Positions 33,972 to 57,988 of a DNA stretch of 64,000 bases are shown one piece after another. The position numbers and the translations under genes were made by a program. The notes beneath the pieces are model-generated. The model did no database searches and was not told the origin of the DNA. It worked only from the letters and a program-made list of their open reading frames with translations. Every line of letters starts with the position of its first letter. Position 1 is the first letter of the stretch. The DNA is from an uncultured delta proteobacterium. GTDB taxonomy: Bacteria; Desulfobacterota; Binatia; UBA9968. The stretch is from positions 352,001-416,000 of the forward strand of contig CAVSHR010000009.1 of assembly GCA_963727625.1 (NCBI GenBank). Reading direction: 5' to 3'.

Positions 33972-34241
33972 ATGGCTAGCAAGACATACCATGGGGTTAC
34001 TGAGGAAATATTCAAGTGCGTCAAAACCAAGAGCCACAGTGAGCACGGCACGATTTACGATCCCCCGACGGGAAACAAGGGAACCGCAACAACCTCCATC
34101 CCCGTGTTAGGAAAAATAGTATTGGGCTACGATCTGCAACCCAATAGGGACCTGACGTACACCATTATCGAAAAGCCGGGCCTGGCTCCTGAAGGCGAAA
34201 TTTGGAGCGGTATTGAGAAAACCATCAACGGCTGCCGATAA
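33972..34241 (+). CDS. Small hypothetical protein (89 aa, two Cys)
   Basis: RBS gaggga, natural composition, followed by a long hairpin. Confidence 0.65.
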   Translation: MASKTYHGVTEEIFKCVKTKSHSEHGTIYDPPTGNKGTATTSIPVLGKIVLGYDLQPNRDLTYTIIEKPGLAPEGEIWSGIEKTINGCR

Positions 34242-34264
34242 GGGCAGTCGTGAGTTTGGAACGC

Positions 34265-34308
34265 ACCAGAAATGGGGCACTCGGACGTAAGAGTGCCCCA
34301 TTTCTGGT
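34265..34308. terminator. 18-bp perfect stem-loop after the 89-aa gene
   Basis: accagaaatggggcactc-ggacgtaa-gagtgccccatttctggt. Confidence 0.65.
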
Positions 34309-34637
34309 CTCATCGCGTTCCCCATGCTGTAACGTGGTTTTCGTGACATGTTTGTCATGACTGGCCGTAAAGCGCTGCAGCCACTGCCCTGGCTGACTCC
34401 CTCATGATTATTTCGCGCCGTTTGGCAGAGCCGCTGTCGGGCCACCTGAACTCGCGCCGCCCACACCGATGCGGCCGGAGTCTTCCGCAAGCGATTCCGC
34501 ATTGGCAGCCAACCATTCGAGCGTGCCATGGAGAATCTGTCTGACCGCAGCAATCCGTGGTACAAGTCAATCTCCGTTTTCATGTCCCGTAGTCGTTCGA
34601 TGCGCTTACAAGTCACATACGAGAGAGAATAATTGAA

Positions 34638-36240
34638 ATGAACGTCCCTTCACAAAGTGATCCCGAGTGGAACAATTGGTCTGAAAATCTGGTACACAAG
34701 CCCGCAACGAGTGGTGAGTTCTATTACTTTTGCCCTGCGAATCGCGAGGAACTAAAAAACATCGTGCTGGAAGCTCAAGCCGCGGACGTACAGATACGCG
34801 TGTCGGGTCAACGTCATTCACAACCGCCCCTGGTTATCGACGACAACCGCGGCAATCGTTCATATAAGTCCAAAACATGGCTGGTGGACCTTTCCTGTTA
34901 TGCGGACCTCGGTCCGGATGGCAACGAACAGATAACGGTTGATATGGAAAAAAACACAGTCACCGTTAATGCAGGCGTGAGAGAAGACTACCTGGATGCC
35001 TATTTGGCAACCAAAAATCTGATCTTGGAAACGGTTACTGCCGGGGGGTTTTTCAGCGTTGGCGGCATGACGGCGGTTGATGTCCATGGAGCCACTTTTC
35101 ACGCGCCCATCTTTGCGGAGACCGCTGTCGCATTTTCCGTAATGGGACCGGATGGAGAAGTAACAGTAATTGACGAAACCACTCCTGGCATAGGTGATTG
35201 GAGAGCCATCCAGTTTGCGCGCGTCTCCCTCGGCGCGTTGGGAATTGTCACGTCTGTCACGATCTCAGTTCTGGAGCGGAAGTGGGCGACAACGTTGAGC
35301 TCCGGGGTCGATCGGGTCACGCTGTCCGATAAGACGCGCTTTTGTTTCCAAGTACCTGCAGTTGTTCAAAGATCATCAACGCGCTGAGTCGTTTTATAAC
35401 CCTTACAATAATGAGTTCCTGATCCTGTGGTATGATCTGGCAAAAGACCCTTCTTGGAAGGCTCCGAATAGCAGTAAAATTTCTGTGCCCACGTCCTGTG
35501 AATTTGCCGGCCAGGGTACTCACGGCGCACCTTACGAACCTGCACTGGTGGAATGGTTAGCACAGGGTACTATCGGTTGGATACAGCTGCATAAGTTCAA
35601 GAAACTGGCCAAGTGGGCTATCGACGCGGCCTATCTCGAGATCAGGAGCATGTTTAGCAAAGCTCAAAAACTTTACACGGATCTCTGGCTGACGGCGGCG
35701 GCACGCACCACCTTCCTTTCTTATTTCATCGAACTCCCCCAGCTCGATGAAGACGGACTGAGTAAAACTTGGGAGGCGTTGCAAAAGGTACCGGAGCTGT
35801 TGAAGCAATCAGATTACTTTCTGGTTGCAGGTCCACTGGAGTTCCGTTTTATCAATGGAGGCAATTCCGCACTCTCAGGCGCTTACACAGCTAACAAAGA
35901 TAGCTATTTTGTGAATCTGGACCTGATTGGATTCGTACCCAAGGTTTCTGCTGACCAATACCCCAAAGAGATGCTCGATTTTTTTGCAGCCGTTGAGAGG
36001 TCGTGGTACGGCGAATACAAGGGCATGCCGCACAATGGCAAGATGTATGGTTTTTACGATCCGATGGTCAGCGGCGATGACTCCACACCCCCATTCAACA
36101 AGGAATTCATTGCAAACCTTGCAAAGCGGCGCGGCGACCGGCTTACGCAATTCGAGGCCTACCGGAAAACCCGGGATCCCAACGGACTGTTCTGCAACGA
36201 CTATCTTCGAGCCGGGTCGATTGGCACCACTAAGAAATAG
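34638..36240 (+). pseudogene. FAD-linked oxidase (FAD_binding_4/ALO-like), paralog 1, +1 frameshift near 35337
   Basis: WNNWSEN, RVSGQRHSQPP, TAGGFFS.GG, DVHG and ARVSLGALG. Removing one base in aagacgcgcttttg restores KTAFVSKYLQLFK...PLEFRF...PHNGKMYG. Confidence 0.85.
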
Positions 36241-36245
36241 CTGCT

Positions 36246-37981
36246 TCAGTTCCAGATGCTGTTAAAAGATTTTTTCGGATTCATGGCTGTATACGGGATG
36301 TCGAGCCGCCGATTGCGAGCATCTATTGCGACAGAAATCTCGTTTAGCGCTTTAAGCCAGTTTGCGATGTTTTCTTTGACCCCCGCAGGCCAGCCGTTCG
36401 TGAAATCGTCGTCGTATTTCCCCAATTGGTTGCTGTCGGTGTGCGCAAAGTCGGCAGAGGCGAGGAGCGCGTTACCAGCGATTGCATACGATATAGGAGG
36501 CAAGCGATCGGAAACCTCGCTGAGTTTGAGTTTTGCGTTCGCTTCCTGCGGCGCTGCCAGCCGGTACAAGGGAGGGTTGGCTGGTGTATAAGCATAATTT
36601 AACGCGCCGTTCTCAATCGAACTGTGCCTGGAAGTCACAGTGAACAATACCGATGTAATGATCTGGTGAAGAGCCTCTCTGGTTTCTATTTTGCCTTGTG
36701 CGTTAACCGGAAGCCCAACAATTCCGGCCCCATCTGTTGATGCCATCTCCGCCATCCAAGCCTGTAGCTCCAAGTCGTTCAGCACATCGGCATCGCTCTT
36801 GTAAAAAAGGCCTAGCATGGATTTTACGTAACCGAGATCCGCTTCCCATAATTTCAATGCATCATCCCGGTAATAGAAATGGGGAAGCGCGTCCACGTCG
36901 TCCACTCCGCGTTTTCTAAAGTTGCAATTGGGATCGTAATCGCGGAAATCAAAATGCTTGAACAACTCGGATACCATTTGGTTTTGGCCCGCCAAGCCCG
37001 TTCCGAGGATCTCCGTTTGGGCTCCGTTTTCGTTATCCATAGTTCCTTTCACTTCATAGGTAATTAACAGAGTTCCCCAGAAATGGGGTTTCAGGAGTGC
37101 GTACACGGGGTGTTCGGCGGGCAGCGTGCGATTCGCCGAAGTCCAGACATTGCACATGACAAAGTGCATAAGTATGGTGTGGCTGTAAATGGCATGAACT
37201 AGACTATCCGCACATGAAGCATGAATCTTTACCGCCAACCAGGTATTCGGATCGCGATTCGGTGTAAAGATGGGGTTGGTGAGAGAACTGTCCGGATACA
37301 ACTGAATCCCAAGAGGCATGAGCTGGCCGATTTCATTCACACAAAACAGGCTTGTCGGGGCGGTCATCACATGACCGTGGGCGGGCGGTGCACCATTCAG
37401 CTCCGCACTGTGACACATAGTAAAGGCGGCGGGCGCTCGCCAAGGTCGCCAGCGTCTGATTGGCTGGCAGCAATCCGTCAAGCATGGCATCGGTAACTGG
37501 AAAATTGCGCTGAAACGCTGCCAGGTTTACGACCCTTTGGATGAACCAGGGGTACATGCCATTTAACCGCTGCGATGCAAATATGGCGTCTTGCTGCCAG
37601 AGGTTGTTTTTGCCGACCATGGGCAGCGAGTCCTCGGTGAATAACGCAGCGTATTCTTCAAACGGTTTGCCCTGCTTCGCCAATGTTTAGTCTCGTACAC
37701 TTATTAAGTGCCCATTGCATCAGTTTTGGTGATTAGAATTCGGCCACCCGCTTCCATAAGCAACGCCTATTCTTTGAGTGGTTGTTCGCGTCGCGGAAGA
37801 TCGTAAAAGTATTTTGCCTAATGGAAGGCGGATAGCCTTGCCACGAATGATCGAATACGTATTCTTTACAATTTTTTTCAACTTCCTTTTTCCTGGCATC
37901 CCGCTGGTCTGGCGTACAGTTCTGCGGCAAGCTGAGAGTTCCAGTGGTATTCAACAGGGTAGGGTCATTTGAGTTTGTCAT
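36246..37981 (-). pseudogene. Lipoxygenase, in three fragments (frameshifts/stops near 37690-37740 and ~37405)
   Basis: WQQDAIFASQRLNGMYP; WLAVK; H-x4-H-x4-H-x17-H-x8-H (HAIYSHTILMH...HPVYALLKPHF); YRDDALKLW; DLELQAW; HSSIE; C-terminal NSIWN. Confidence 0.85.
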
Positions 37982-38313: not shown

Positions 38314-40395
38314 TTAATTTGTGTCTCCCAACACCGCGCGCAGATAATCGTTATAGAAGCGACCTCCTGGATCCATGCTCTTGCGGTATTCATTGAAGGC
38401 CTTCAGTCGATCGTCGCGACGCCGACGCAGATCAGCCAAGAAGTTTACGTTGAACGGCGCCGTGTGAGTGCCTGTCGGCTGATCCGGGTCGTAAAAGCCG
38501 TACATCTTGCCCTGATGCGGAAAGCCGCCCATTGCAACCCACTGCCGCTCCACGTCGGCGAAAAACTGCAATAGCTTTGCGGGGTATTGAGACGGCGTCT
38601 TGTTCTCTTCCACAAAGCCAATCAAATCTAGGTTGACGAACCATGTGTTAGCGGTATTAACCGTATACGCGCCCGACATGGCCGAGTTACCACCCTTGAC
38701 GAAGCGAAACTCCATCGGCGCCGCAATGTGGAAGTTGCCGTTTGTGTTGACGATCCTCGAAACGACATCTAGCCCGTCCCACACTTTCTCGAGCCCAGCC
38801 TTGTCGAGGTTAGGTAGCGAAATGTAATAAGACATGAAAATGACGCGCACCGCACCTGCCAACCACAAATCCGAATGCGACTTGTTGGCTTTATCAACAT
38901 CCGACTCGATTTCGATGAGGGTGGCCGCGGCAACTTCAGCGGCCCCTGTAATCGCCCAATCAAAATACTGTGCCTTTTGCGCAAACTCGGCACCGTCTTT
39001 GCCAATCCCCCCCAAAATCGGTGCACCATATTGCTGTTTTTTAGCTAGTTGGCAAGCGTCATCGACTCGCGGCTTCGTGTTACCGGGACCAGAGTCAAGT
39101 TTTACATTCCACCACAGCACCAGAAAGTTCTTAACGAGCGGTCGGCCGGTTGCGTATGGAGTAAAGAACACCTCAAGGCGATCGTGTGTCACCAATTTCA
39201 AAAATTCTGTCACGAAGTCGTGCTTGTTAGGAAGTTGTAATTCTTCGGTCCCCCCCTGAAGCGTCGTCGCAAATGGTCGGGGCAAAACATCGATTGTGAC
39301 CGACGTCACAATACCCAACCCGCCCAGCGACACCCGCGCGAACTGTAACTGCGACCATTTCCCGACCGGCCCCGAGTTCGCGTCGATCGTAATTATTTCT
39401 CCGCTGCCCCGCACAATCGTGAACGCCGACACCGTTTCGGCAAAAATCGGCGCGTCTATCGTTCCCCCATGGACGTCGACCACGGTCATGCCGCCAAGAC
39501 TAAAGAATCCCCCCGCCGTGACGGTCTTGAGCATTAGATTGTTCGCGGTCAAAAACGCGTCCAACTCGTCCTCGCGCACGCCGGCATTCACCGTAACCTG
39601 ATTTTTTTCGGGTCCCAGCACGATGCGTTGGTCAAAGTTAGGTCCCAAATCTGCGTAACAGGACATGTCGACGAGCCAGGTCTTCCTGGTCGCAGGCGAC
39701 CCGCTACGATTGTCGTTAATCACCAGGGGCGGCTGTGAATGCCGCTGTCCAGATACTCGGATGGTCACTTCGTCTTGGTCTTGCGCAGCTCCAGCGAGTA
39801 CAAGCCTTAATTCCTCCATATTGTGCGGCATGTAATAATAATCCCCAGTTACCGGCGTATGGACGATGTTTCCGCTCCAGTTTTGCCAGTCTACTTCCCA
39901 TCCCAACTGCATGAAGTGCCCATCGGCGGGGTCAGCTCTCCACAACTTTCCATTTTGAACAACGTACAGCGCAGCACTCCCCCAAGCCTGCATGGCAGTC
40001 ATCGCTGCCGTGTCATTCCAATGTTGCCCCTCTCCCAATTGCTCATATTTTCCGGTCCCTGGGTCAGCTCTCCACAGCATGCCATTCTGAATCACGTACA
40101 GCCACCTACCCCAAGCAGTCATCGCCGCCGTTTCATTCCAATGTTGCCCCTCTCCCAGTTGCGTAGGCTTTCCCGTCTCCGGGTCTGCGCTCCACAACTT
40201 GCCCTTCTGAATCACGAATAGCAGTTTGCCCAACGCAGTCATCGCCGCTGTTTCATGCCATTCTTCTATTCCTAGTTGCTTATACGCTCCCGACCGCGGG
40301 TCTGCTCTCCACAACTTGCCATTTTGAATAATGTACAACCACCCATCCAAAGCGGTCATCGCTGCTGTGCCCTTCCAGGGTTGCGATTCTGCCAC
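38314..40395 (-). CDS. FAD-linked oxidase, paralog 2, with four N-terminal ~40-aa beta-propeller-like repeats
   Basis: Repeats W..TAAMTA...LYVIQNGKLWRADP..G.Y.QLG, then WQNWSGN, SGQRHSQPP, PMEFRF and PHQGKMYG; RBS aggagg 7 nt before the GTG. Confidence 0.88.
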   Translation of the reverse strand: MAESQPWKGTAAMTALDGWLYIIQNGKLWRADPRSGAYKQLGIEEWHETAAMTALGKLLFVIQKGKLWSADPETGKPTQLGEGQHWNETAAMTAWGRWLYVIQNGMLWRADPGTGKYEQLGEGQHWNDTAAMTAMQAWGSAALYVVQNGKLWRADPADGHFMQLGWEVDWQNWSGNIVHTPVTGDYYYMPHNMEELRLVLAGAAQDQDEVTIRVSGQRHSQPPLVINDNRSGSPATRKTWLVDMSCYADLGPNFDQRIVLGPEKNQVTVNAGVREDELDAFLTANNLMLKTVTAGGFFSLGGMTVVDVHGGTIDAPIFAETVSAFTIVRGSGEIITIDANSGPVGKWSQLQFARVSLGGLGIVTSVTIDVLPRPFATTLQGGTEELQLPNKHDFVTEFLKLVTHDRLEVFFTPYATGRPLVKNFLVLWWNVKLDSGPGNTKPRVDDACQLAKKQQYGAPILGGIGKDGAEFAQKAQYFDWAITGAAEVAAATLIEIESDVDKANKSHSDLWLAGAVRVIFMSYYISLPNLDKAGLEKVWDGLDVVSRIVNTNGNFHIAAPMEFRFVKGGNSAMSGAYTVNTANTWFVNLDLIGFVEENKTPSQYPAKLLQFFADVERQWVAMGGFPHQGKMYGFYDPDQPTGTHTAPFNVNFLADLRRRRDDRLKAFNEYRKSMDPGGRFYNDYLRAVLGDTN
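39905..40380 (-). repeat. Intragenic tandem repeats, period ~117-120 bp
   Basis: gc(a/g)gtcatcgc(t/c)gc(c/t)gt recurs at ~39995, 40115, 40235 and 40352. Confidence 0.85.
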
Positions 40396-40789
40396 TTTCA
40401 ATCCTCCTATTCCAAGTCAACCGTCAATTCAGTGCGAAGCATTAACAGTTCATATGACACGAGGCAGCAAGCTAGGTGACGCGCGGAAATTAGGGACCAC
40501 TGGGTTTCTCAAATTAGCCCACTCGGAAAAAAACGTCTTGCTATAAACTAACTAACCGATATATACGACTAAAATTGTAATACAAGACAAATATTGCGGG
40601 GATTTACCGCAAATTAACGCTTGTAGACGATCTTATTCGTATGGATCGCGCCCCAGCTATAGACGCTGAGCGGTAGTCGCAACGCTAGATTCCGGGAGTT
40701 CTCCGCTCGAACAGCTCCTCTAGCGCAGGGGGATTTGTTTAGTTGCTCAAGGTTGCAATCGTAGCACTCTCGCTTTGCGCAAACGATTT

Positions 40790-42976
40790 ATGAAGTCGCT
40801 TCACAAAACCCGCGTAGAGCACCGCTTGCTTGCTTTGACCAAGCCGTGGCTCTCATCCTGTCTTTTGGGAGTCGGTTTGGCTTTCTGTACTGGTGCGGCC
40901 GCAGCGCAAACGCCCTCGCCAAATCAAGAAATCGAAGAACTCAAATTCAAAGACATCGAAGAGCTGAACCTTGAGAAGCTCCTCGATATCACCATCTCCC
41001 TTGCTGCTGGCCGGGCGCAGCGCGTTGAAGATGCGCCGGGCATCGCGTCAGTTATTACTGACGAAGAGATTCGCCGCCTCGGCGCCCGCACTTTGTCCGA
41101 TGTCCTCCAATTCGTGCCTGGTTTCGAGGTCATAAAGGACGCTCTCGGCCGGGACAAGATCGTCGTGCGCGGCACGACTTCTGGGTTGACCAACAGCTCC
41201 TCGGAGAGTGTCTTGATCCTGTTTAACGGTCATCGGTTGAATCAAGGGACCGACGGCGATGCGATAAGCATCAACCTGGAAATCCCGGTGGACAACCTCA
41301 AGCGCATCGAGATCATCCGCGGACCGGGTTCGGCGCTATTCGGCGCCAACGCCTTTCTGGGCGTGATCAACCTCGTCCCTTACACGGCAAACGATATACA
41401 AGGCATCCGCCTGTCATCCGGAGGTGGATCCTTTGGCACTCAACAACACAACATCTTAGGGGGCTACAAGCGCGGGGATTTCAGCATATCGGGTTTCGCT
41501 CAATTCAAAGACACCGATGGCCCAAGGCTTCTTGTTCCGGCGGACGCGCAAACAGCCTTCGACAACCTGCTTGCGCCCTTCGGTTTCCCTCCCATTTCGC
41601 GAGCGCCGAGCCGGACACGTGACAACAGCAGCGCCGTGGATGCCAATCTTCAGCTTACCTATAAAAACTTTACCGCGAATGCGAGATTTCAGGACACGCA
41701 CTCCGGCGGATTCATCGGCGCCACGGAGGTGCTCGGAAATTCCCGGTTTGACACACAACAAATTTTATTCGACGCGGGATACCGCTATCCGCTCGGCGAC
41801 AAGGGGAGCTTGCTGGCCAAGTTTAGCTTCAACCAAAATAAAGATCGACGATTGCAGGAATATTTCCCGCCGGGATTTGTCGTTTTTACCCCTGGGTTTG
41901 GGTTCGCGGTCCTACCTGCCGGCTTTGGCCTCGATTGGAGTATCAATACCAGGCGGTACGCCGGTGAAACCGTTCTCGAATATCAGTTGTTCAAAAACCA
42001 CCACTTTACGCTGGGCATGGAATACGACTACGAGTCCACTTACGATATTAAAACCAAATCTACGTTCGATTCGAGCACGGTGCCGCTGACGCCGCTTCTA
42101 TCTCTGCAGCGCCCGCCCTGGCAAATTTTGCCGCCCACCAGCCGTAAGCTCTTCAGCGTCTACGGCCAGCATATTTGGACTCCCTTATCGCAATTGGATC
42201 TCACCACCGGCGTCCGCTACGACCATTACAGCGACTTCGGCGACACGGTCAATCCGCGCGTGGGTCTCGTATGGCGCTTCGCCAAAGACTTTAACCTGAA
42301 GCTGCTCTACGGTCGCGCCTTTCGCGCGCCAAGTTTTTACGAAAGCCGCGAAAGCATCCCCAACTTGCTGGTTGGTGGCGATCTGAAGCCTACGACACTG
42401 CAGACCGTCGAAGCCGGCATTGGCTATAGCAGTCAAAACAAGTTTCACGTCAGCGCGACTTACTTCGCCACTTTCATCCGCGACTTCATCGTCCCGACCG
42501 ATACGCTTCTGGTCCCAAAAACAGACCGTTCCTTTGCCAACGCGGACGCTTACGACATTCAGGGACTGGAGTTCGAAACAAAGCTCAATTTGTGGGACCA
42601 TACTCTGTTTGCGAACTACACTTTTCAGCACTCGAAAGACAAATCCACGGGCGAGTCTCTCCCCGATGTCCCCGCACATATCGGCAGCTTGGGTCTAACT
42701 CTTGCCCTCGGCGATTACTTTAAGCTCACGCCTGCGGCGATTTTCCGAGGCAGCCGGCCGAGGTTTGTGACCGACACTCGTAAGGACGCTCCGGGATACG
42801 CTTTGTTTAATTTGACGCTTCAGGCCAAGACTCCGATTCCCGGGCTAGAGCTGTCGGGAAGCATTTATAACTTGTTTGACAAAAACTATACCAACCCGGC
42901 GCCGGTTAACGGCGTGCCGGGAGACTATCCGAGGCCAGGACGGAGTTTTTTCTTAAAGGCAATTTACAAATTTTAG
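40790..42976 (+). CDS. TonB-dependent receptor, copy 1 (YfiR-associated type)
   Basis: Signal peptide; LNLEKLLDITIS; plug RIEIIRGPGSALFGANAFLGVIN; C-terminal NLFDKNY...GRSFFLKAIYKF. Confidence 0.92.
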   Translation: MKSLHKTRVEHRLLALTKPWLSSCLLGVGLAFCTGAAAAQTPSPNQEIEELKFKDIEELNLEKLLDITISLAAGRAQRVEDAPGIASVITDEEIRRLGARTLSDVLQFVPGFEVIKDALGRDKIVVRGTTSGLTNSSSESVLILFNGHRLNQGTDGDAISINLEIPVDNLKRIEIIRGPGSALFGANAFLGVINLVPYTANDIQGIRLSSGGGSFGTQQHNILGGYKRGDFSISGFAQFKDTDGPRLLVPADAQTAFDNLLAPFGFPPISRAPSRTRDNSSAVDANLQLTYKNFTANARFQDTHSGGFIGATEVLGNSRFDTQQILFDAGYRYPLGDKGSLLAKFSFNQNKDRRLQEYFPPGFVVFTPGFGFAVLPAGFGLDWSINTRRYAGETVLEYQLFKNHHFTLGMEYDYESTYDIKTKSTFDSSTVPLTPLLSLQRPPWQILPPTSRKLFSVYGQHIWTPLSQLDLTTGVRYDHYSDFGDTVNPRVGLVWRFAKDFNLKLLYGRAFRAPSFYESRESIPNLLVGGDLKPTTLQTVEAGIGYSSQNKFHVSATYFATFIRDFIVPTDTLLVPKTDRSFANADAYDIQGLEFETKLNLWDHTLFANYTFQHSKDKSTGESLPDVPAHIGSLGLTLALGDYFKLTPAAIFRGSRPRFVTDTRKDAPGYALFNLTLQAKTPIPGLELSGSIYNLFDKNYTNPAPVNGVPGDYPRPGRSFFLKAIYKF

Positions 42977-43696
42977 ACGAACACAGAGGAACAAGTCGCA
43001 AGTTGAATTGAGTGCAAGGAAAGTCACGCTGGCATGAAACGTTGGACGACATACTTGAGCAGAGCTTGGATCAGCGCACTCCTGTGTCTGGCGCTGCTCA
43101 TGCCGCGCCCGGTTTGGGCCGAGGACGTTCCGGTGCCGGCCAGCGTTCAAGTGCCGATCTTCCTCAAGGTGCTCACCTTCGACAGAAATTTTGACGAACG
43201 GGTCAAGTCGCAATTGAAGATCGGCATCGTGTACGCCGAGGAAGACCCTGAGTCCCGACAAGCCAAAGACAACATGGTGAAAATCCTCGATGGCTATGCG
43301 GACAAGACGATCAAGCAGCTGCCGATCACCTATGTTTTGATGCGCTACACGACCGAGCAGAATGTGGTGGAATCTGCCAAGTCCCAGGGAGTTAACGTCC
43401 TTTACGTCACTCCGGGAAACGCCAAACATCTAGCGGCCTTGCTTCGAGTCAGTCAGAAGCTCCGAATCATCACGGTCACCGGGGTGCCGCAGTACGTCGA
43501 ACAGGGAGTCACGGTTGGTCTCGGTTTAAAGAGCGATAAGAAAACTCAAATACTGATCAATCTCAAGTCGTCGAAAATCGAAGGCGCGGCCTTCGACGCC
43601 AATCTGTTGAGACTCGCCACCGTGATGTAATAAATGCCGCAAGTCGGTGGCGTTAGAATCGCTGCCGCACAAAAACAGAGCAAAACTCTATGCGTG
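40858..43696 (+). repeat. ~2.8-kb direct repeat, copy A (TBDR+YfiR); copy B at ~48083-50923
   Basis: Long identical stretches, YfiR proteins identical, offset ~7227 bp. Confidence 0.95.
43034..43630 (+). CDS. YfiR/DUF4154-family periplasmic protein, copy 1
   Basis: Signal peptide, IFLKVLTFD and ILINL......GAAFDANLLRLA; directly after the TBDR. Confidence 0.8.
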   Translation: MKRWTTYLSRAWISALLCLALLMPRPVWAEDVPVPASVQVPIFLKVLTFDRNFDERVKSQLKIGIVYAEEDPESRQAKDNMVKILDGYADKTIKQLPITYVLMRYTTEQNVVESAKSQGVNVLYVTPGNAKHLAALLRVSQKLRIITVTGVPQYVEQGVTVGLGLKSDKKTQILINLKSSKIEGAAFDANLLRLATVM

Positions 43697-43737
43697 TCCT
43701 TCACAGGCTGAACATTCAGCGCAGCACAGGGGGCTAA
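43690..43737 (+). pseudogene. 5' remnant of a sensor kinase gene
   Basis: MRVLHRLNIQR(STGG*) sits at the position where copy B starts the kinase [13 protein letters not shown]. Confidence 0.65.
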
Positions 43738-44067
43738 CTCACCCTGACCCGCTGGTGGCCCCCTTGAGCTGCGTATTTGTCAATAGTGCGCAGTCTGTCT
43801 TATGAAAACAATCCCTCGAGCTTAGAGCGAGCATTGCGAGAGGTAACACCGATAAAATGCGCTCGAGCCCCAAGCGGTGCAAGTCAGGGCAGACGAGACT
43901 GGAATCGTCATTTAACATGGCAAACCAAAAATGGCGTTGACAATTTTTCTACCCGGCGGTATGGCAGGGCCAAGAAAACGAACCTCTCCACCCAACGCTC
44001 AATCGTGGTGTCTCGTAGTCGGGCGCTCGGCAATCACGCTCCGCGACCACGAAAGGAACTTAAAAAT

Positions 44068-45636: not shown

Positions 45637-45813
45637 TCCCTGGCGGGGCATTCATTTCGACGCGTCACCGTCTGCTCGGTCTCCTTCGTCAACAAAACCG
45701 AGGCATTGACAGATTGCCTTTTTTATCTTTTTCGTCTCCGTCCCCAATCGATTAGTACCATGTCTCAGCAATTCAACTCTTTCTACGGCTATAGCAGCTT
45801 AGGCAAAAAGTCG

Positions 45814-47514: not shown

Positions 47515-48015
47515 TTTCAACCCTCCTTTTATTATCTCAGCACAAAACTGTGCGCTGCTACCCTCTCATTTCGCGCAAGCTCTGAATAAGCTCGGGCGAG
47601 AGATATCCGAAAACATACTCGCTGGCAACCCTCCCCGAGCGCAGTAGACTTTAAACTGGCGCGATATACCCGCTTTTATCTCCCGAGCCTAATCATTGGG
47701 GCAGTATGTCCGCCTGTCCGAATCATCAGGATATCCCCCTTGAGCTTTTAAAATTAATTCTTGCAATTTTCTTATCGAGTTAAGTATATTTCATCCTTCT
47801 GCGGACTCGCAGCGTAGACAGTGCCTTCAGATTGGGATTGACGCGTAAAGTCAGGAATCGTCCGTGGATGCTGTTCTCGTGCGGCTCCAGTAAGTTTCAG
47901 ACGATGTGATAACAGCGGCCATGCTGGCTTCGAGGCGGTATTGCGGAATGGCATCTTTCCTTACCCAGGCGAGTTTTCAGGCGGTTTGTAAAACGGCGAC
48001 CATCTTTAAAGCCCG

Positions 48016-50202: not shown

Positions 50203-50923
50203 ACAAACACAGAGGAACAAGTCGCAAGTTGAGTTGAGTGGTAGGAAAGTCACGACCGGCATGAAACGTTGGACGACATACTTGAGCAGAGCTTGGATCA
50301 GCGCACTCCTGTGTCTGGCGCTGCTCATGCCGCGCCCGGTTTGGGCCGAGGACGTTCCGGTGCCGGCCAGCGTTCAAGTGCCGATCTTCCTCAAGGTGCT
50401 CACCTTCGACAGAAATTTTGACGAACGGGTCAAGTCGCAATTGAAGATCGGCATCGTGTACGCCGAGGAAGACCCTGAGTCCCGACAAGCCAAAGACAAC
50501 ATGGTGAAAATCCTCGATGGCTATGCGGACAAGACGATCAAGCAGCTGCCGATCACCTATGTTTTGATGCGCTACACGACCGAGCAGAATGTGGTGGAAT
50601 CTGCCAAGTCCCAGGGAGTTAACGTCCTTTACGTCACTCCGGGAAACGCCAAACATCTAGCGGCCTTGCTTCGAGTCAGTCAGAAGCTCCGAATCATCAC
50701 GGTCACCGGGGTGCCGCAGTACGTCGAACAGGGAGTCACGGTTGGTCTCGGTTTAAAGAGCGATAAGAAAACTCAAATACTGATCAATCTCAAGTCGTCG
50801 AAAATCGAAGGCGCGGCCTTCGACGCCAATCTGTTGAGACTCGCCACCGTGATGTAATAAATGCCGCAAGTCGGTGGCGTTAGAATCGCTGCCGCACAAA
50901 AACAGAGCAAAACTCTATGCGTG
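48083..50923 (+). repeat. ~2.8-kb direct repeat, copy B (TBDR+YfiR)
   Basis: Matches 40858-43696. Confidence 0.95.
50261..50857 (+). CDS. YfiR/DUF4154-family protein, copy 2
   Basis: Protein identical to 43034-43630. Confidence 0.8.
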   Translation: MKRWTTYLSRAWISALLCLALLMPRPVWAEDVPVPASVQVPIFLKVLTFDRNFDERVKSQLKIGIVYAEEDPESRQAKDNMVKILDGYADKTIKQLPITYVLMRYTTEQNVVESAKSQGVNVLYVTPGNAKHLAALLRVSQKLRIITVTGVPQYVEQGVTVGLGLKSDKKTQILINLKSSKIEGAAFDANLLRLATVM

Positions 50924-53214
50924 GTTTTCGTACCCTGACCATTCAGCGCAAGCTCACCGTCATCATCATGTTGACGAGCAGCGTCGCGCTGTTCTTGGGC
51001 GCGGCCGGATATGGCATCTACGATCTGCTCTCTTTACGCCGCTCGATGGTAAGGGATCTTGGGATCCTGGCTGAAGTCATCGGCACCAACAGCAGGGCGG
51101 CATTGGTCTTCAACGATCAGAAGTCGGCTGAAGAGACGCTCGCAGCGATCGTCGCAGAAGAACATATCGTCGCGGCGATCCTCTACACCCATGATGGCAG
51201 GGTTTTCGCCAAATACCTGCGAAGCGACATCAAGGCTGGCTTTACCCCGCCAAGCGCCCAACCCGTTGGTTATGCTTTCGAGACCCATTATCTCAATATG
51301 TTTCAGCGTATCGAGCGTCAGGGTGAGGTGATCGGGACGATCTACTTACGGTCGGACCTGGGAATATTTTACTCTCGCTTGAAGGAATTAGTCGGCATCG
51401 GCGCACTGGTCATGTTGGCGGTATCCTTCGTGGCCTTTTTGCTGTCGTCCAGACTCCAAAAAATCATTTCCGGGCCGATTTTGCTGCTAACCCAGACCGC
51501 TCGTGTCGTTTCCGAGGACAAAGACTACTCGGTTCGCGCGGTCAAGACGAGTGACGACGAGCTGGGGTTTTTGATCGATCGGTTTAACGAAATGCTGGCG
51601 CGGATTCAGGATCGCGACGTGGAGCTGATGGCCGCGAAGGAAAACGCGGAGAGCGCGACCCGTGCCAAATCGGAGTTCCTCGCTAGCATGTCGCACGAGC
51701 TTAGGACGCCTTTGAACGCGATTATCGGATACAGCGAGATGCTGGAGGAAGAGGCCGGCGACCTTGGACAGGAGGAATTCATTCCCGACCTCAAGAAGAT
51801 TCAAAGCGCAGGCAAGCATCTGATGTCGCTGATCAACAACATCCTCGATCTTTCCAAGATCGAAGCCGGCAAGATGGATCTCTACTTGGAACAGTTCGAG
51901 ATCGCGCCGATGATTGACGAAGTTGCCAGCATGGTCAAACCGCTGGTCGAAAAAAACGCCAACCACTTGCAAGTAATCTACGCACCCGATCTCGGCAAAA
52001 TGACGGCGGATCTCACCAAGGTCCGTCAGACGCTATTTAATCTGGTCAGTAACGCTTGCAAATTCACTGAGCGCGGCAAGGTGGCCCTCGGCGCCGCGCG
52101 CAAGCATGACGGGACTGGAGACTGGATAGACTTTACCGTTGCCGACACGGGCATCGGCATGACTCCCGAGCAGGCCGCCAAAATCTTTCAGCCCTTCACC
52201 CAAGCCGATGCATCAACCACGCGTCGCTACGGCGGGACCGGTTTGGGACTGGCCATTAGCCAGAGATTTTGCGAAATCATGGGTGGATCAATAAATGTCT
52301 CCAGCGAGCCTGGACACGGATCAACGTTCACGGTACAACTGCCGGCTCTCGTGATGGATTCCGTCAGTGGCGGGGCCTCCGTCGAATCCGCTGAGAAACC
52401 AGCGGCTAAGACATTGCCAACCAGCGATGGCAGTCCGTTGGTATTAGTCATCGACGATGACCCCACGGTACATGACTTGATGGGCAAGTTTCTCAAAAAA
52501 GAAGGGTTGCGCATGGCGGCAGCGACGCGCGGCGAAGAGGGCTTGCTTCTCGCCAAAGAATTGCATCCGTCGCTAATCACCTTGGACGTGATAATGCCTG
52601 GACTGGACGGCTGGATGGTGCTGGCGGCACTCAAAGCGGACGCTGCGTTGTCCGATATTCCGGTCGTCATGATGTCGATTACCGACGAGCATCAGAAGGG
52701 ATATGCTCTGGGCGCGGCCGAGTATCTGACCAAACCGATCGACTGGGACCGATTTGCCAACGTCTTGCAAAAATATGAGCAAGCTCTTGTCCCTCATCGG
52801 ATCTTGATCATAGAGGACGACGAAGCCATGCGCGCTCTCTTGGCGCGGCGTTTGGAAAAGGATAAATGGACGGTCGTCGAAGCCGCCAATGGCCGGACAG
52901 CGTTAGAACAAATACAAAAGATGCCTCCCGATCTGATCTTGCTTGATTTGATGATGCCGGAAATGGACGGCTTTCAATTCTTAGAGGAGTTGCGCAAAAG
53001 GGCAGACTGGAGATCGATTCCTATCATTGTCCTAACCGCCAAAGACCTGTCTAGCCAGGATCACCAACGACTCACAGGCTCGGTGCAGAAAATTCTCCAA
53101 AAAGGCGCCTATAGCCGAGATGATCTGTTCAATCAGGTCCACGACTTGATTGCCGCGTCGGTGCACCAAAAAATCCGTCAAGGTATCTCCCATGGCGAAA
53201 ATTTTACTGGTTGA
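50917..53214 (+). CDS. Hybrid sensor histidine kinase (CHASE8-like periplasmic domain, HAMP, HisKA, HATPase, two REC)
   Basis: TM-AALVFND-TM; [12 protein letters not shown]; SHELRTPLN; [10 protein letters not shown]; DTGIG; GGTGLGL; two receiver domains. Confidence 0.92.
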
Positions 53215-53569
53215 AGACAACGAGATGAACCGCGACATGCTGTCGCGCCGTTTGCAGCGGCGCGGCTACGAAGTGGTGGTTGCCGTTGACGGTGAACAAG
53301 GAGTGGCGCTGGCTCAAACGGTAATCCCCGACCTCATATTAATGGATATGAGTTTGCCGATCCTCGACGGTTGGGAAGCGACTCGGCAGATTAAATCCGG
53401 CACCCGGACCCAGTCGATTCCTGTTATCGCCTTGACGGCACATGCCATGGTGGGTGATCGAGACAAAGCCATTGAAGCGGGATGCGATGACTACGATACT
53501 AAGCCCATCGATCTGACGCGCCTGTTGGAGAAAATGGACAAGATTTTAAGCAAAGCCGGACGGGGATGA
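53192..53569 (+). CDS. Single-domain response regulator (DivK-like)
   Basis: [29 protein letters not shown] and TKPI motifs. Confidence 0.92.
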
Positions 53570-54642: not shown

Positions 54643-54694
54643 GAAACGGAAACTAGCGACGTAAAATTTTCCAGATTCGCAACCCGAGAGCGCC

Positions 54695-55450
54695 ATGCCC
54701 ATAATTGTTTCCATACACTCCTATCGAGGCGGTACGGGGAAATCGAATTGCACTGCCAATCTTGCGGTTCTGTTGGCCGCCAAGGGCTGGCGCGTCGGCG
54801 TCGTTGATACCGATATTCAATCACCCGGGATTCATGTATTGTTTGGTTTGGACGAATCTGTGATCGTCTATTCGCTGAATGACTATCTCTGGGGTCGCTG
54901 CGAGATTCGGGACGCGGCTTACGATGTCAGCGAACGATTGGAACAGCGGATTTCGGGCCGGATTTATCTTATTCCGTCCAGCATCAAGGCCGGCGAAATC
55001 GCCCGCGTGCTGCGCGAAGGTTACGACGTGAGTCTGCTCAATGACGGCTTCCACGATTTAATCGCTGCGCTCAATTTGGACGCGCTGCTGATCGATACCC
55101 ATCCAGGGCTGAACGAAGAAACGCTCTTATCGATTGCCGTCTCGGACACGCTCCTGATTATCCTCCGCCCGGATCAACAGGACTACCTCGGCACCGGTGT
55201 CACCATCGAAGTGGCGCGCCAGCTCAGCGTGCCCCGAATGCTCATGATCGTTAACAAAGTGCCAGCCGCATTCGACAGCGCCGAAGTGATATCCCGGGTT
55301 GAAGAAACGTACAAATGCCCGGTAGCAGGCGTCTTGCACCATGCCGATGAAATGATGGCATTGGGTAGCGCGGGGATCTTTGTGCTGCGCTATCCCGATC
55401 ATCCGGTCTCGGCCGTGTTGAGGCAAGTCGCAGAAGTATTAGTGAAGTAG
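54695..55450 (+). CDS. MinD/ParA-family ATPase
   Basis: SIHSYRGGTGKSN (deviant Walker A), VDTDIQSPG, IDTHPGL and IVNKV motifs. Confidence 0.88.
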   Translation: MPIIVSIHSYRGGTGKSNCTANLAVLLAAKGWRVGVVDTDIQSPGIHVLFGLDESVIVYSLNDYLWGRCEIRDAAYDVSERLEQRISGRIYLIPSSIKAGEIARVLREGYDVSLLNDGFHDLIAALNLDALLIDTHPGLNEETLLSIAVSDTLLIILRPDQQDYLGTGVTIEVARQLSVPRMLMIVNKVPAAFDSAEVISRVEETYKCPVAGVLHHADEMMALGSAGIFVLRYPDHPVSAVLRQVAEVLVK

Positions 55451-55474
55451 TCTGGAAACCCACGGAAAATCACC

Positions 55475-57988
55475 TTGAGCGCCCAATCCGCAAACTACTA
55501 CGCCGAAATTTTAGCCAAGGTAAAACTCTTCGCCGGCCTCGAGCGGGTCGATTTTGCGCGCTTGGCGGGTTACGCCGAGTCGCAGCCGGTAAAAGACGGC
55601 ATTACGGTATGCCGCGAGGGGGACAAGCTTGACTGTATTTACGTCGTCGCGCGCGGCGCCTTCGGCATATTTGCGTCAACACCCGACGGTCTTGGTGAAG
55701 TGCGGCGGGAAGGTTTGGCGCCGGGCGATTTTTTCGGTGATATGGCGCTCATCGATGACGCGGCCGTAGCACCCACCGTGCGCGCTGAATCCGAAGGCGA
55801 ACTCTTGCGCTTGGACCGCGCGCGCGTGATCGAATTCCTTCATTTGCAGCCGACGACTCTCCGCGCGGTAACCGCGATTTTGCACCGCGGCCAAACACAG
55901 AACGACACGCCAAGCGCTACGCCGGCGCGAAAGCGCGGGGGAGCGGCGCAACGCAGTGTGGCGCAGGAGCGTATGGCCCGCGCGCTGATGATGGTCGAGC
56001 TCGGACGCTTGCCAGCCGAGCGCCTCAACCGAGTATTACAAGCCAGCGTGTTGGAGGAAGTTTCTTTACCGGCGTTACATCTGCTTTTTAACGAAGCAGC
56101 GGATGTGGTTGCCCGCGACTTGAGCGAGCTAGGTATCCGGCGCGACCGCAACAGCAAGTCCACGCTGCAAGCGTTGCGCGTGCGATTCGAACAAGAACAC
56201 GGCAAAGAAGCGACCGCAGAATTTCTTCGGAACGCCATCGAAAGCTTAACTGGCGCGCAGCGCTGGGACGAAGCGTTGGCAATCTTAAATCGCATCGGTG
56301 ACCGCACACACTTGGTCAAAACCCTGGGTGAAGCGCTCCGCGCCACCCCGCCCTTGTCTAGCGAGCGCGCAAAACAGTGGCTGGAATCGCTCAGCGATGA
56401 CGATACATTAGCCGATGGCCAAGTGCTGCTTGGGCGCGCCGCCAAATTGGAAAGCCAAGGCGAGCGGGAAGCGGCGGCGCGCTTGCTGCGGCGCGGGCTC
56501 GGAAGCGGTCTGGCCGGCGCCGATCCGATCATCGGCCAGCAAATGGCGAGCGAGCTGTCGCGTCTGGCCACCGAGGCAACCAAACCGCGAGGAAGCTCGA
56601 CGCGCAAAGGCAACGCTACAGGAAACATCGTTGCGATCAGCGTTTCTGTGCTGCTCGCCATCATCGCGGCATTCTTGGGACCGGCCAATGCTCAAGGAAA
56701 ATTTCTATTGCTGCTGCCGGCGGGTCTGGTGCTTTGGATCAGCGGGGTCTTGCCGGAATTTGCCGCCGGATTCCTTCTCGTAAGTTCCTGGGTTCTATTC
56801 GGTGTCGTTAAGCCGGCGCAGGCAATGGCAGGTTTCGCGTCATCAAATTGGGTCTTTGTGGTTTCGATACTTGGGCTGGCAGCGGCAATTTCTAGCTCTG
56901 GACTTTTGTTTCGAGTCGGTTTGCTGCTCGTGCGTCGCATGCCTCACAGCTTGTTTGGACAATCTTTAACTCTATTGCTCACGGGTGTTATCTTGTCACC
57001 CCTGCTGCCGCAGAATAAGGGTCGAGTAACCCTAACCACTCCGCTTGCGCTTAGCCTGAGTGACGCTCTTCGCTTAAAGGAGCGGAGTCCGGCCGCGGTC
57101 GTGTTAGGCATGGCGACCTGGGTGGGCTCGACTCAACTTAGTTTTATGTTCTTAAACGGCGGGGCACTTAATCTCTTGGCGTGGGGACTTTTGCCCGAAG
57201 GCAGCCGTTTTCACTTCGATTGGATTCGCTGGCTCATCGCCGCTGCGCCACTCGGGATATTCGCTGGCATAGGAGTCCTCGCGAGCATGTTCCTGGTACT
57301 TCGGCCCAAAGCCACTACTGGCGTTTCACGTGAGCGAGTCAACTTCCAACTTGCCGTCCTTGGGCCTTTCACGAAACGCGAGTGGATCATGACATTGATA
57401 ATTATCCTAATGGTGATCGGCTGGGCAGGTGCCACCGTGTTTCGTTTGGACATGGGCGTGATTGCATTGCTTGGGCTACTCGCCTCGGTGGCAACTGGGA
57501 TCTTCGATAAAAAAGCGTTCAATCAGCTCGACTGGAACTACCTGATTTTATTTGGCGTGATCGCAGGAGTTTCCCAAATCATTGCTTCCCTGGGACTGGA
57601 TAAAACTTTAGCCGAAGTCGCCGGCACAGCTCTCCTTCGATTTGGCCATCAACCGTTTTTCGTTATCCTAGGCATAGCGAGTCTGAGCATGCTTCTCAAC
57701 CTGCTATTATCGCAACAAACAGCACTACTGATAATTGGTGTCACCTTAATTCCCGTTGCTCCGCTGATCAGTATGGAGCCATGGGTTGTTATCGTCACAG
57801 CTTTGTCAGTCTCTTCCATGTGGTTTTTGCCCACCCAGACCACAAGCTATTTATTGGCATACTCGACATCAGAAGGCAAACTTTTTTCCCATAGCCAAGC
57901 ACGCCAAGTTTCGTTTATCTTCGCGGCCGTGATACTCGTGGGATTGGTTCTTACGGTTCCATACTGGCGTTGGCTTGGTTTGCTTTAG
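55475..57988 (+). CDS. cNMP-binding domain + helical region + SLC13/DASS-like permease
   Basis: LFAGL...REGD...YVV..G...GDFFGDMAL at the N-terminus; multi-TM C-terminal half with AMAGFASS.W.FV, LG..T.RE and LDWN.LILFG. Confidence 0.75.
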   Translation: MSAQSANYYAEILAKVKLFAGLERVDFARLAGYAESQPVKDGITVCREGDKLDCIYVVARGAFGIFASTPDGLGEVRREGLAPGDFFGDMALIDDAAVAPTVRAESEGELLRLDRARVIEFLHLQPTTLRAVTAILHRGQTQNDTPSATPARKRGGAAQRSVAQERMARALMMVELGRLPAERLNRVLQASVLEEVSLPALHLLFNEAADVVARDLSELGIRRDRNSKSTLQALRVRFEQEHGKEATAEFLRNAIESLTGAQRWDEALAILNRIGDRTHLVKTLGEALRATPPLSSERAKQWLESLSDDDTLADGQVLLGRAAKLESQGEREAAARLLRRGLGSGLAGADPIIGQQMASELSRLATEATKPRGSSTRKGNATGNIVAISVSVLLAIIAAFLGPANAQGKFLLLLPAGLVLWISGVLPEFAAGFLLVSSWVLFGVVKPAQAMAGFASSNWVFVVSILGLAAAISSSGLLFRVGLLLVRRMPHSLFGQSLTLLLTGVILSPLLPQNKGRVTLTTPLALSLSDALRLKERSPAAVVLGMATWVGSTQLSFMFLNGGALNLLAWGLLPEGSRFHFDWIRWLIAAAPLGIFAGIGVLASMFLVLRPKATTGVSRERVNFQLAVLGPFTKREWIMTLIIILMVIGWAGATVFRLDMGVIALLGLLASVATGIFDKKAFNQLDWNYLILFGVIAGVSQIIASLGLDKTLAEVAGTALLRFGHQPFFVILGIASLSMLLNLLLSQQTALLIIGVTLIPVAPLISMEPWVVIVTALSVSSMWFLPTQTTSYLLAYSTSEGKLFSHSQARQVSFIFAAVILVGLVLTVPYWRWLGLL

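Follow-up and report, generated by a model that had tools for sequence, protein, structure and literature searches.

A strain-specific island in an uncultured Binatia bacterium that probably combines a conserved TonB-dependent receptor-YfiR-CHASE8 kinase sensor with an unrelated set of flavoprotein oxidases

Do the oxidases, receptors and signaling proteins encoded side by side in one bacterial gene region act as a single system, or have separate modules come to lie next to each other? This question is raised by a 64,000-nt stretch of DNA from an uncultured delta proteobacterium (Bacteria; Desulfobacterota; Binatia; UBA9968), positions 352,001 to 416,000 of the forward strand of contig CAVSHR010000009.1 in assembly GCA_963727625.1. 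We refer to the whole stretch as the window and give all coordinates as window positions; the region under study is 33972..57988. It encodes four flavoprotein oxidases (ox1 to ox4), a lipoxygenase, two pairs of a TonB-dependent receptor (TBDR) and a YfiR-like periplasmic protein, and a run of genes that leads from a CHASE8 hybrid histidine kinase to a MinD-like ATPase and a transporter. An earlier note on this DNA had proposed that the enzymes make a signal that the receptors perceive and pass on to the ATPase. Every gene listed in that note was found by open reading frame (ORF) listing together with Pfam and NCBIfam scans (Table 1). Comparison with related loci leads us to a different view of how these genes came together: the region is probably a strain-specific island of unrelated modules, in which a conserved sensor core lies beside a separate set of oxidases with a broken lipoxygenase.

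The TonB-dependent receptor, YfiR-like protein and CHASE8 kinase

Metagenome contigs were scanned with an alignment of the YfiR-like subfamily, and the loci of the best 80 of 220 relatives were taken as the sensor sample, with flanks of up to 10 kb (372,640 nt in total; at least 5 kb upstream in 12 loci and at least 5 kb downstream in 12). For the receptor, adjacency was counted over the 67 loci whose upstream sequence reached at least 300 nt, and for the kinase over the 70 loci with as much sequence downstream. A TBDR gene lay directly upstream of the YfiR-like gene in 66 of the 67 loci, and the N-terminus of a CHASE8-type kinase directly downstream in 63 of the 70; among the seven exceptions, three have a kinase nearby on the other strand and four have no CHASE8 match. 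Within the available flanks, none of the 80 loci held an oxidase, a lipoxygenase, a relative of the small ORF that opens the region, a MinD-like gene or an SLC13 gene. The sensor part of the window's own kinase passes the curated NCBIfam model NF053592, named "sensor histidine kinase, YfiR-like protein-associated" (Table 1). These comparisons support the view, already put forward in the earlier note, that the three proteins belong together as a conserved trio, and the gene order supports a relay from TBDR to YfiR-like protein to kinase, which is partly known.

The order TBDR, YfiR-like protein, kinase is also that of the curated families NF053590 (TOL_0244 TBDR), NF053591 (TOL_0243 YfiR-like) and NF053592. 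The window's other two members of the trio fall below their models: the TBDRs reach 111 to 113 bits against the NF053590 cut-off of 645, and the YfiR-like protein reaches 27 bits against the NF053591 cut-off of 125. By these scores they are a sister subfamily of the NF053590 and NF053591 equivalogs and stand outside them. The DUF4154 match in the window covers only profile positions 35 to 142, at 44 bits, compared with 126 to 169 bits for canonical copies in the genus. The subfamily is small, with 20 word-indexed relatives, of which the closest (P0122) is 76% identical and lies on a 30.7-kb contig. DUF4154, CHASE8 and the oxidase family each occur in the source genome only at this locus, as two DUF4154 copies, one CHASE8 protein and the four oxidases. 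A 2.3-kb contig of another genome of the genus (locus L015; G002 C1008) carries a divergent DUF4154 gene followed by the N-terminus of a CHASE8-type kinase 40% identical to that of the window.

The nearest described system is YfiBNR (TpbB/DgcN) of Pseudomonas aeruginosa and E. coli, in which, as here, the gene of a periplasmic DUF4154 protein neighbors that of an inner-membrane receptor carrying CHASE8-type and HAMP domains; among 14 control genomes, DUF4154 and CHASE8 were both found only in E. coli. The output differs, being a hybrid histidine kinase and phosphorelay in the window and a GGDEF cyclase in YfiN. The window also has no YfiB-type OmpA/Pal lipoprotein and has a TBDR in its place; neither a GGDEF nor an OmpA-type domain was found among the island ORFs scanned by Pfam. 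YfiR has disulfides, whereas the mature YfiR-like protein of the window is free of cysteine; its N-terminus, read from sequence, resembles a signal peptide. By analogy with YfiBNR, and given the homology and exclusive pairing of the two proteins, the YfiR-like protein would bind the periplasmic CHASE8 domain and hold the kinase in one signaling state. In place of YfiB, the TBDR would be the partner in the outer membrane, capturing or releasing the YfiR-like protein upon ligand binding. A predicted complex of the second receptor, TBDR2 (residues 41-728), with the mature YfiR-like protein, computed from author-built alignments, reached an ipSAE of 0.57 against 0.00 for the best control. For comparison, 58 of 80 solved complexes reached the mark, as did 2 of 110 mismatched pairs; with scores up to 0.60, just 7 of these 80 complexes did so, along with both mismatched pairs. 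The prediction runs shared at least 67% of contacts, with a partner pLDDT of at least 86, and lend weak support to contact between the two proteins.

An outer-membrane TBDR is also the input of trans-envelope signaling in TonB-dependent transducers of the FecA-FecR-FecI type, and TonB-dependent receptors signal via sigma/anti-sigma pairs. The window resembles these systems in having a TBDR as input but differs in all that follows it. Its TBDRs carry only Plug and barrel domains in the Pfam and NCBIfam scans, with no N-terminal signaling (STN) domain, and the same scans detected no sigma (including ECF) or anti-sigma gene in the island; a soluble periplasmic protein would lead to a histidine kinase instead. 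Literature searches turned up no paper on a TBDR-YfiR-kinase system. An in silico study describes the YfiR-YfiN[PAS/HAMP] core as modular, with outputs that include kinase, HPT and MCP types, and gives a Thauera system that has two YfiR homologues and a hybrid kinase (Malone et al. 2012, PMC3375315). TonB is not mentioned there, and such neighbors may be listed in supplementary Table S4 of the same paper (PMC3375315).

Oxidases, lipoxygenase and the 89-residue protein

The reverse comparison started from the oxidases. Species-representative genomes were scanned, the loci of the best 80 of 110 relatives were taken with up to 10 kb on either side, and neighbors were searched with the window proteins as queries at E <= 1e-5. 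The oxidase family is both widespread and strongly conserved, with 590 matches at E <= 1e-5 among 8000 candidates scored; the best 120 homologues are 57 to 73% identical, the closest (P0002-P0006) reaching 72 to 73%, and bear names from Acidobacteriota, Bacteroidota, Cyanobacteriota, Myxococcota, Verrucomicrobiota and Pseudomonadota. Across the 80 oxidase loci there was no YfiR-like, MinD-like or SLC13 match. A lipoxygenase was found in one locus (L096) and a match to TBDR1, the first receptor, in one (25 bits), and the kinase and REC matches seen in seven or eight loci were generic. An iterated TBDR profile detected a TBDR-like ORF in 6 of the 80, adjacent to the oxidase only in L096. The linkage that the earlier note had set as the test of its idea that the oxidases and lipoxygenase make the signal is thus absent from either side: oxidase homologues elsewhere lie apart from YfiR-like genes and almost always from lipoxygenases, and the related TBDR-YfiR-kinase loci carry neither enzyme.

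Nor did the oxidases show any other conserved partner, since clustered neighbor families each occurred in at most 9 of the 80 loci and the largest clusters reflected synteny within a genus (Undibacterium, Pedobacter, Pseudomonas). In 79 of the 80 loci the oxidase was present as a single copy. Its recurrent neighbors were RHS-repeat/DUF6443 giants of 2100 to 2700 residues accompanied by PhyH and 2OG-Fe(II) oxygenase genes (seven loci: L062, L066 and L071 in Pedobacter, and L046, L048, L055 and L090), nonribosomal peptide synthetase or polyketide synthase (NRPS/PKS) genes (four loci: L052, L087, L089 and L093) and LamG giants (two loci). In the Undibacterium loci (L065-L086), repeated short ORFs with GFEPRTF-type translations lie about 1 to 3 kb upstream of the oxidase; these may be tRNA gene arrays read as protein, the mark of an insertion hotspot.

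The four oxidases, which the earlier note had called paralogous, are indeed homologous but represent three subtypes. In a tree of 84 rows built by a quick method, at least three label changes are forced: ox1 is sister to the L096 oxidase (SH-aLRT 99), ox3 groups with the L091 and Undibacterium sequences (100), and ox2 and ox4 are sisters (98) next to the L018 oxidase, which is the nearest relative of ox4 at 74% identity. Only ox2 and ox4, 72% identical in protein and 75 to 81% in DNA, are an in-place duplicate, and ox1 is broken in frame.

The active-site residues give some indication of chemistry. All four oxidases keep the histidine of a GQRHS motif (His58), which we take to be the covalent-FAD site of gulonolactone and alditol oxidases, and a Glu-Arg pair (E421/R423) that aligns with the E..R motif of L-galactono-1,4-lactone dehydrogenase. 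Among proteins of solved structure, the closest in sequence are L-galactono-1,4-lactone dehydrogenase (8qnr) and alditol (xylitol) oxidase (2vfr). The proteins thereby share with the VAO family (GULO, GLDH and alditol oxidase) the FAD_binding_4 and ALO domains, the GxxHS histidine and the E..R pair. They differ in being about 100 to 130 residues longer than alditol oxidase (422 residues, 2vfr) and in belonging to an unnamed family, 57 to 73% identical across phyla, that has no conserved neighbors. Because their scores lie far below the curated cut-offs for lactone oxidases (59 to 77 against 396.8 bits for TIGR01678; 41 to 62 against 292.25 bits for TIGR01679), they form a separate subfamily. 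No signal peptide could be read from the sequence of any of them. Together, these sequence features point to a cytoplasmic substrate of the polyol or lactone type rather than to an exported lipid signal. Ox2 alone has an N-terminal extension, composed of four repeats of about 40 residues with the motif W..TAAMTA...LY.IQNGKLWRADP..G.Y.QLG (direct-repeat families D7 and D9, periods of 117 to 132 nt) and seen in no other member among the top 120 homologues. The repeats score 0.81 to 0.82 against tachylectin/tectonin clusters in the Atlas, which serve as leads only, and 22 bits against Pfam DUF6923, below its cut-off; they may form a beta-propeller or lectin-like domain.

Enzymes of this kind beside outer-membrane receptors could also indicate nutrient uptake, with the TBDRs importing a polyol, sugar lactone or glycan fragment, the cytoplasmic oxidases catabolizing it, and the YfiR-kinase pathway reporting its availability. 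The resemblance to alditol and aldonolactone oxidases fits such an arrangement, as do the divergent pairing of oxidase and TBDR both here and in L096, the DASS transporter downstream and, as a weak lead, the lectin-like repeats of ox2. Yet this class of TBDR is tied to the YfiR-like gene and kinase in the 66 of 67 loci counted above without catabolic genes, and any TBDR at all accompanies the oxidase in only 6 of 80 loci. No inner-membrane importer or hydrolase adjoins the oxidases of the window, and elsewhere they adjoin RHS-repeat giants, NRPS/PKS or unrelated genes. We therefore regard an uptake function as unlikely.

The small protein at the start of the region has relatives in 6 of the 80 oxidase loci and belongs to a family of 105 representative clusters among 1.84 billion proteins. 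It matches no Pfam or PADLOC family, and its Atlas clusters are unnamed. Its predicted model (pLDDT 93.8) has a common alpha+beta fold, for which Foldseek returned no match in the PDB at E <= 0.001 (best 0.013). Comparison by VIA-align gave best Z values of 9 to 10 to folds of the KA1, adaptin-appendage and BamC-N type, barely above the typical best Z of 7 to 8, and no function was drawn from it. In a Pyrinomonadaceae metagenome-assembled genome (MAG), the domain forms the C-terminal 90 residues of a 2308-residue, LamG-containing giant that adjoins the oxidase (L060:4461-11387).

One locus brings several of these genes together. Locus L096, from a Pseudohongiella MAG, encodes within 14 kb two copies of a 90-residue protein (51 to 58% identical to that of the window), an oxidase that is sister to ox1 and an intact lipoxygenase of 573 residues. 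The two lipoxygenases are 60% identical (50 to 65% piece by piece), and that of L096 has no close homologue in 40 relatives of the Pseudohongiella genome. L096 differs from the window in having intact genes and in lacking both a YfiR-like gene and a CHASE8 kinase; the TBDR there is of another class, and the locus also encodes a cyclase-STAND-TPR and an SRPBCC protein. From these comparisons, the small protein, ox1 and the lipoxygenase look like a mobile trio present in two unrelated accessory islands. This trio is the one surviving part of the proposed link between oxidases and lipoxygenase.

The intact L096 proteins also served as guides to the broken genes of the window. Ox1 is split over two frames near 35341-35387; the tblastn alignment with the L096 oxidase changes frame at 35341-35342. 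The lipoxygenase gene is spread over three frames, and stops separate its pieces. A frame break also affects an ornithine cyclodeaminase gene that lies outside the region (30375-31471), dividing it into overlapping ORFs at 30375-31058 and 30980-31471; for this reason, assembly indels are just as likely as real decay to have caused the breaks.

The phosphorelay and the genes that follow it

The genes from kinase to transporter are closely spaced: that of the single-domain response regulator overlaps the kinase end, the HisKA-REC gene overlaps in turn by 4 nt, and gaps of 52 nt and 24 nt precede the ATPase and transporter genes, respectively. Regulators 56 to 83% identical to the window's single-domain REC protein were found in 27 of the 80 sensor loci, 20 of them divergent upstream, 6 convergent and 1 co-directional, and this regulator is the best-conserved partner of the sensor system. 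An orthologue of the HisKA-REC protein is present in 13 sensor loci. A class III cyclase domain follows in 12 of these, and the 13th is cut by the contig end. Pfam recovered the architecture HisKA-REC-Guanylate_cyc in all five metagenome HisKA-REC proteins scanned (one from L105, two each from L116 and L124) and in a homologue from genus genome G012. The usual output elsewhere is thus a HisKA-REC-adenylate/guanylate cyclase. Two such genes occur per locus in L116 (2581-4422 and 5372-7033) and L124 (3467-5314 and 5331-6905), and an FHA-domain protein is encoded downstream in the TBDR-YfiR-kinase loci L116 and L140.

In the window, by contrast with these orthologues, the alignment shows that the HisKA-REC protein ends in a HAMP-like coil where their cyclase domain starts, and no cyclase remnant was found in the window. 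The relay partner of the related loci resembles two-component-type adenylate cyclases of the cyanobacterial CyaC type in joining HisKA, REC and a class III cyclase; the window protein (358 residues) and a short form in genus genome G005 (353 residues, unpublished) differ in ending in the coil without a cyclase domain. The HisKA domain of the window protein is of the phosphotransfer type and is not accompanied by an ATPase domain. Phosphate would pass from the kinase histidine to the kinase's own REC domains, then to the ATPase-less HisKA of the next protein and on to its REC domain or to the small regulator.

What stands in the place of the cyclase is a ParA/MinD-superfamily ATPase, followed by a transporter in which a cNMP-binding domain is fused to a DASS/SLC13 domain. 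The ATPase scores below the MinD models (52 against 212.9 bits for TIGR01968; 84 against 201.75 bits for TIGR01969) and by these curated cut-offs is a superfamily member outside MinD. The transporter reaches 113 bits on TIGR00785, below the cut-off of 198.6. Since none of the 80 metagenome sensor loci holds either gene, the MinD-like ATPase and the SLC13 transporter are local additions, unlike the general output of the sensor system; the cyclase domain is missing here, and in our model the ATPase and a cNMP-gated DASS transporter follow as additions specific to this lineage. REC-cyclases are encoded elsewhere in the source genome, and a link between the cNMP they would make and the cNMP domain of the transporter is possible.

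The same survey bears on the earlier note's suggestion that MinD is the signaling output, which it leaves with one weak precedent. In G005 (unpublished), the short HisKA-REC gene, 58% identical to that of the window, comes after regulators and a hybrid kinase of the GAF type; it is convergent with a MinD-like gene whose identity to that of the window is 70%. This is the sole case outside the window in which a relay and a MinD-like gene are neighbors, and its sensor is a different one; in genome G017, a MinD-like gene 50% identical has no relay gene within about 10 kb. The window's relay genes are 58 to 76% identical to homologues in genomes of the genus, where homologous kinase-regulator-HisKA/REC relays lie under other sensors of the dCache and GAF type or the GAF type (L179, G012 C112; L178, G005 C241, unpublished). 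The relay cassette has thus been reused with different inputs.

Duplication and insertion of the region

How the oxidases came to be interleaved with two TBDR-YfiR pairs can be read from the repeats within the region. In a blastn comparison, segments 40858-43723 and 48084-50950 are 93% identical overall; identity is complete (100%) over the N-terminus of the plug and from the C-terminal barrel through the YfiR-like gene, and falls to 76 to 95% in the mid-barrel. The two YfiR-like genes are 100% identical in DNA, and the TBDR proteins are 90% identical (658 of 728 positions), their differences falling in patches, as in a mosaic. When 43600-43800 is aligned with 50827-51027, the two agree fully up to and including ATGCGTG and remain similar over about 27 nt beyond it, so that the match passes the YfiR stop and the spacer and enters the first 34 nt or so of the kinase gene. 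Because it runs on in this way, we read the first TBDR-YfiR pair as a partial copy of an ancestral TBDR-YfiR-kinase unit. The duplication that the earlier note described is therefore real, but the two units are not independent.

In the simplest history, the interleaving would be the product of one old duplication that copied oxidase, TBDR, YfiR-like gene and the first 34 nt or so of the kinase as a stub. Gene conversion would afterwards have re-homogenized the TBDR ends and the YfiR-like gene, while the mid-barrel stayed diverged. The likely outcome would be two receptors of differing ligand specificity that widen the range of ligands feeding one kinase. The intergenic regions between ox2 and TBDR1 and between ox4 and TBDR2 do not align (33 to 58% identity).

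The region as a whole is absent from close relatives. DNA searches of 30 other genomes of the genus showed, among the matches listed (the strongest), synteny that extends to about position 33120 and resumes at 58791. In genus genomes both flanks lie on one contig, 0.6 to 5 kb apart (for example G006 C282, G007 C168 and G014 C12, again among the matches listed), and the region is thus an insertion of about 24 kb relative to these 30 genomes. At the protein level, the oxidase was not found in any of the 40 relatives searched, 24 from the genus and 16 from the order; the YfiR-like protein was found in none of the 30 genus genomes, save one 27% match to a canonical DUF4154 protein. A VapBC-like pair on the left and a DUF4160 cassette on the right bracket the island, and both have further copies elsewhere in genus genomes. 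DNA of the VapBC-like pair matches genus genomes at 73 to 82% identity on contigs other than the syntenic ones, and the pair is mobile within the genus. The DUF4160 cassette is flanked by 103-nt direct repeats (58107-58209 and 58791-58893; family D10, 84% identical) that copy the 3' end of a cupin gene, and looks like the scar of a separate small insertion.

An insertion known from one MAG could be a chimeric join made in assembly or binning, so that the juxtaposition of its genes would not be real. The source assembly has 15 contigs and 6.3% contamination, several genes of the window are frame-broken, and no public sequencing run contains the stretch (best share of sampled words, 0.08), all of which would fit an artifact. 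A single contig nevertheless contains the island together with genus-syntenic genes to its left and right, the relay genes of the island have the identities to genus homologues given above, and the graded divergence of the internal duplication, together with the kinase stub, bears the marks of evolution and not of mis-joining. An artificial origin is accordingly very improbable.

We favor the reading in which the region was acquired horizontally, as an island of about 24 kb between mobile toxin-antitoxin cassettes, and holds modules of separate evolutionary histories. One module would consist of the TBDR, YfiR-like protein, CHASE8 hybrid kinase, single-domain regulator and HisKA-REC protein, whose genes are found together in many uncultured genomes. 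The other would consist of the 89-residue protein, the three subtypes of a mobile aldonolactone/alditol-oxidase-like flavoprotein and the lipoxygenase. The earlier note was right that no described system combines all of these parts, although the reason would be that the island is a mosaic.

Some observations weigh against this reading. The divergence of the mid-barrel (76 to 86%) resembles that of ox2 and ox4, the oxidase having been duplicated along with the TBDR and YfiR-like genes, which argues that the adjacency of oxidase and TBDR is long-standing in the lineage of the island. Three subtypes of a usually single-copy oxidase lie within 13 kb, which pure chance accretion explains poorly. 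In L096, the one other locus with both lipoxygenase and oxidase, a TBDR gene is moreover divergent from the oxidase gene, and the lipoxygenase gene has that of a cyclase-STAND protein as its neighbor.

These same points speak for the model of production and perception, in which an oxidized small molecule, made or modified by the oxidases and lipoxygenase and perhaps also by the small protein, is sensed by the TBDRs and acts through the YfiR-like protein and the kinase on the MinD-like ATPase. All of its parts are present in one island, the oxidase was duplicated with the TBDR and YfiR-like genes as a unit, the oxidase subtypes are concentrated here, in L096 too an oxidase is accompanied by a divergent TBDR and by a lipoxygenase, and a MinD-like gene adjoins the homologous relay in G005 (unpublished). 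Against it, no oxidase locus of the 80 has the YfiR-like or CHASE8-kinase module and no sensor locus of the 80 has an oxidase, lipoxygenase or MinD-like gene. Its lipoxygenase and ox1 are frame-broken, and the oxidases have no signal peptide, whereas the sensor acts at the cell surface. They keep residues of the sugar-lactone or polyol type and show no features of lipid enzymes, and the unalignable ox2-TBDR1 and ox4-TBDR2 intergenic regions mean that no shared bidirectional promoter has been kept. We consider the model quite unlikely. A related possibility, to which we give similarly little credence, is that the sensor was recruited to an enzyme cluster, with the co-duplicated oxidases, small protein and lipoxygenase making, modifying or destroying ligands of the two diverged receptors, and with the output rewired from cNMP synthesis to the ParA/MinD-like ATPase and the cNMP-gated anion transporter.

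Scans of the window for other elements added little to the gene inventory in Table 1. The search for riboswitches and other RNAs gave no Rfam match at the gathering score, and there were no tRNAs in the window. A promoter and terminator scan of 40300-58800 gave counts close to those of shuffled sequence (13 versus 10.2 and 34 versus 23.0) and was not used. PADLOC assigned no gene to a defense system: it returned only generic REC, P-loop and cNMP-domain matches, and none at all for the oxidases, the small ORF, the lipoxygenase or the YfiR-like proteins. Well outside the region, at 8015-10837, a 940-residue ORF encodes a transaldolase fused to a phosphoglucose-isomerase domain, within a pentose-phosphate gene cluster.

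Table 1. Features of the region and its flanks, in window positions
Feature	Position	Strand	Evidence and remarks
VapBC-like toxin-antitoxin pair, left flank	33164..33911	-	PIN 33164-33727 (Pfam 37.1 bits); ribbon-helix-helix 33567-33911 (RHH_1 21.4 bits)
89-aa protein, unnamed small family P0141	33972..34241	+	At exact start of studied region
ox1, VAO/ALO-type flavoprotein	34638..36240	+	FAD_binding_4 46.7 bits, ALO 42.8 bits; pieces 34638-35387 and 35362-36240
Lipoxygenase	36246..37936	-	PF00305 104.8 bits on 414-aa piece, profile positions 281-652; pieces 37936-37826, 37683-37384 and 37400-36249
ox2, intact oxidase	38314..40401	-	Pfam ALO and FAD_binding_4; N-terminal repeats 39880-40401
TBDR1, TonB-dependent receptor, duplicate copy	40775..42976	+	Plug 77.6 bits, barrel 166.6 bits
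YfiR-like periplasmic protein, copy 1	43034..43630	+	PF13689 (DUF4154) 44.3 bits, cut-off 24.9
Copy of YfiR2-kinase spacer and about 34 nt of kinase gene start (stub)	43631..43723	+	Right edge of duplication
ox3, intact oxidase, third subtype	44068..45636 (about)	+	Pfam; ORF opens at 43777, likely start Met at 44068
ox4, intact oxidase	45814..47520	-	Pfam FAD_binding_4 and ALO
TBDR2, TonB-dependent receptor, putative ancestral copy joined to kinase operon	48016..50202	+	Pfam Plug and barrel
YfiR-like periplasmic protein, copy 2	50258..50857	+	PF13689 44.1 bits, cut-off 24.9; ORF opens at 50234
Hybrid histidine kinase, CHASE8-HAMP-HisKA-HATPase-REC-REC	50917..53214	+	PF17152 65.7 bits, HAMP 29.6 bits; NF053592 239.2 bits, cut-off 194
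Single-domain response regulator	53192..53569	+	REC 90.4 bits
HisKA-REC-coil protein, 358 aa	53566..54642	+	Pfam HisKA, REC, HAMP
ParA/MinD-superfamily P-loop ATPase	54695..55450	+	AAA_31, ParA and CbiA matches
cNMP-binding and DASS/SLC13 transporter fusion	55475..57988	+	cNMP_binding 60.7 bits; Na_sulph_symp PF00939 89.4 bits, cut-off 27
DUF4160 cassette, right flank	58107..58893	.	DUF4160 58224-58532, 68.5 bits; between 103-nt direct repeats

An island that both produces and perceives a signal would, if true, be a new kind of system, and the genome comparison does not bear this out. The small protein, oxidase and lipoxygenase, as a trio, provide a modest clue to a flavoenzyme family that is uncharacterized and widely transferred. 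The sensor is of broader consequence: the window appears to hold a duplicated, cyclase-less variant of a module made up of TBDR, YfiR-like protein, CHASE8 kinase and, usually, cyclase. Its two receptor copies, identical in plug and C-terminus but different in the barrel, lend themselves to a natural test of ligand specificity. The TBDR-YfiR-CHASE8 kinase gene order recurs on many metagenome contigs from soil and sediment, which points to a second route, so far untouched by experiment, from outer membrane to second messengers, one that would extend the YfiBNR principle, sequestration of a periplasmic repressor, to a ligand-gated receptor.

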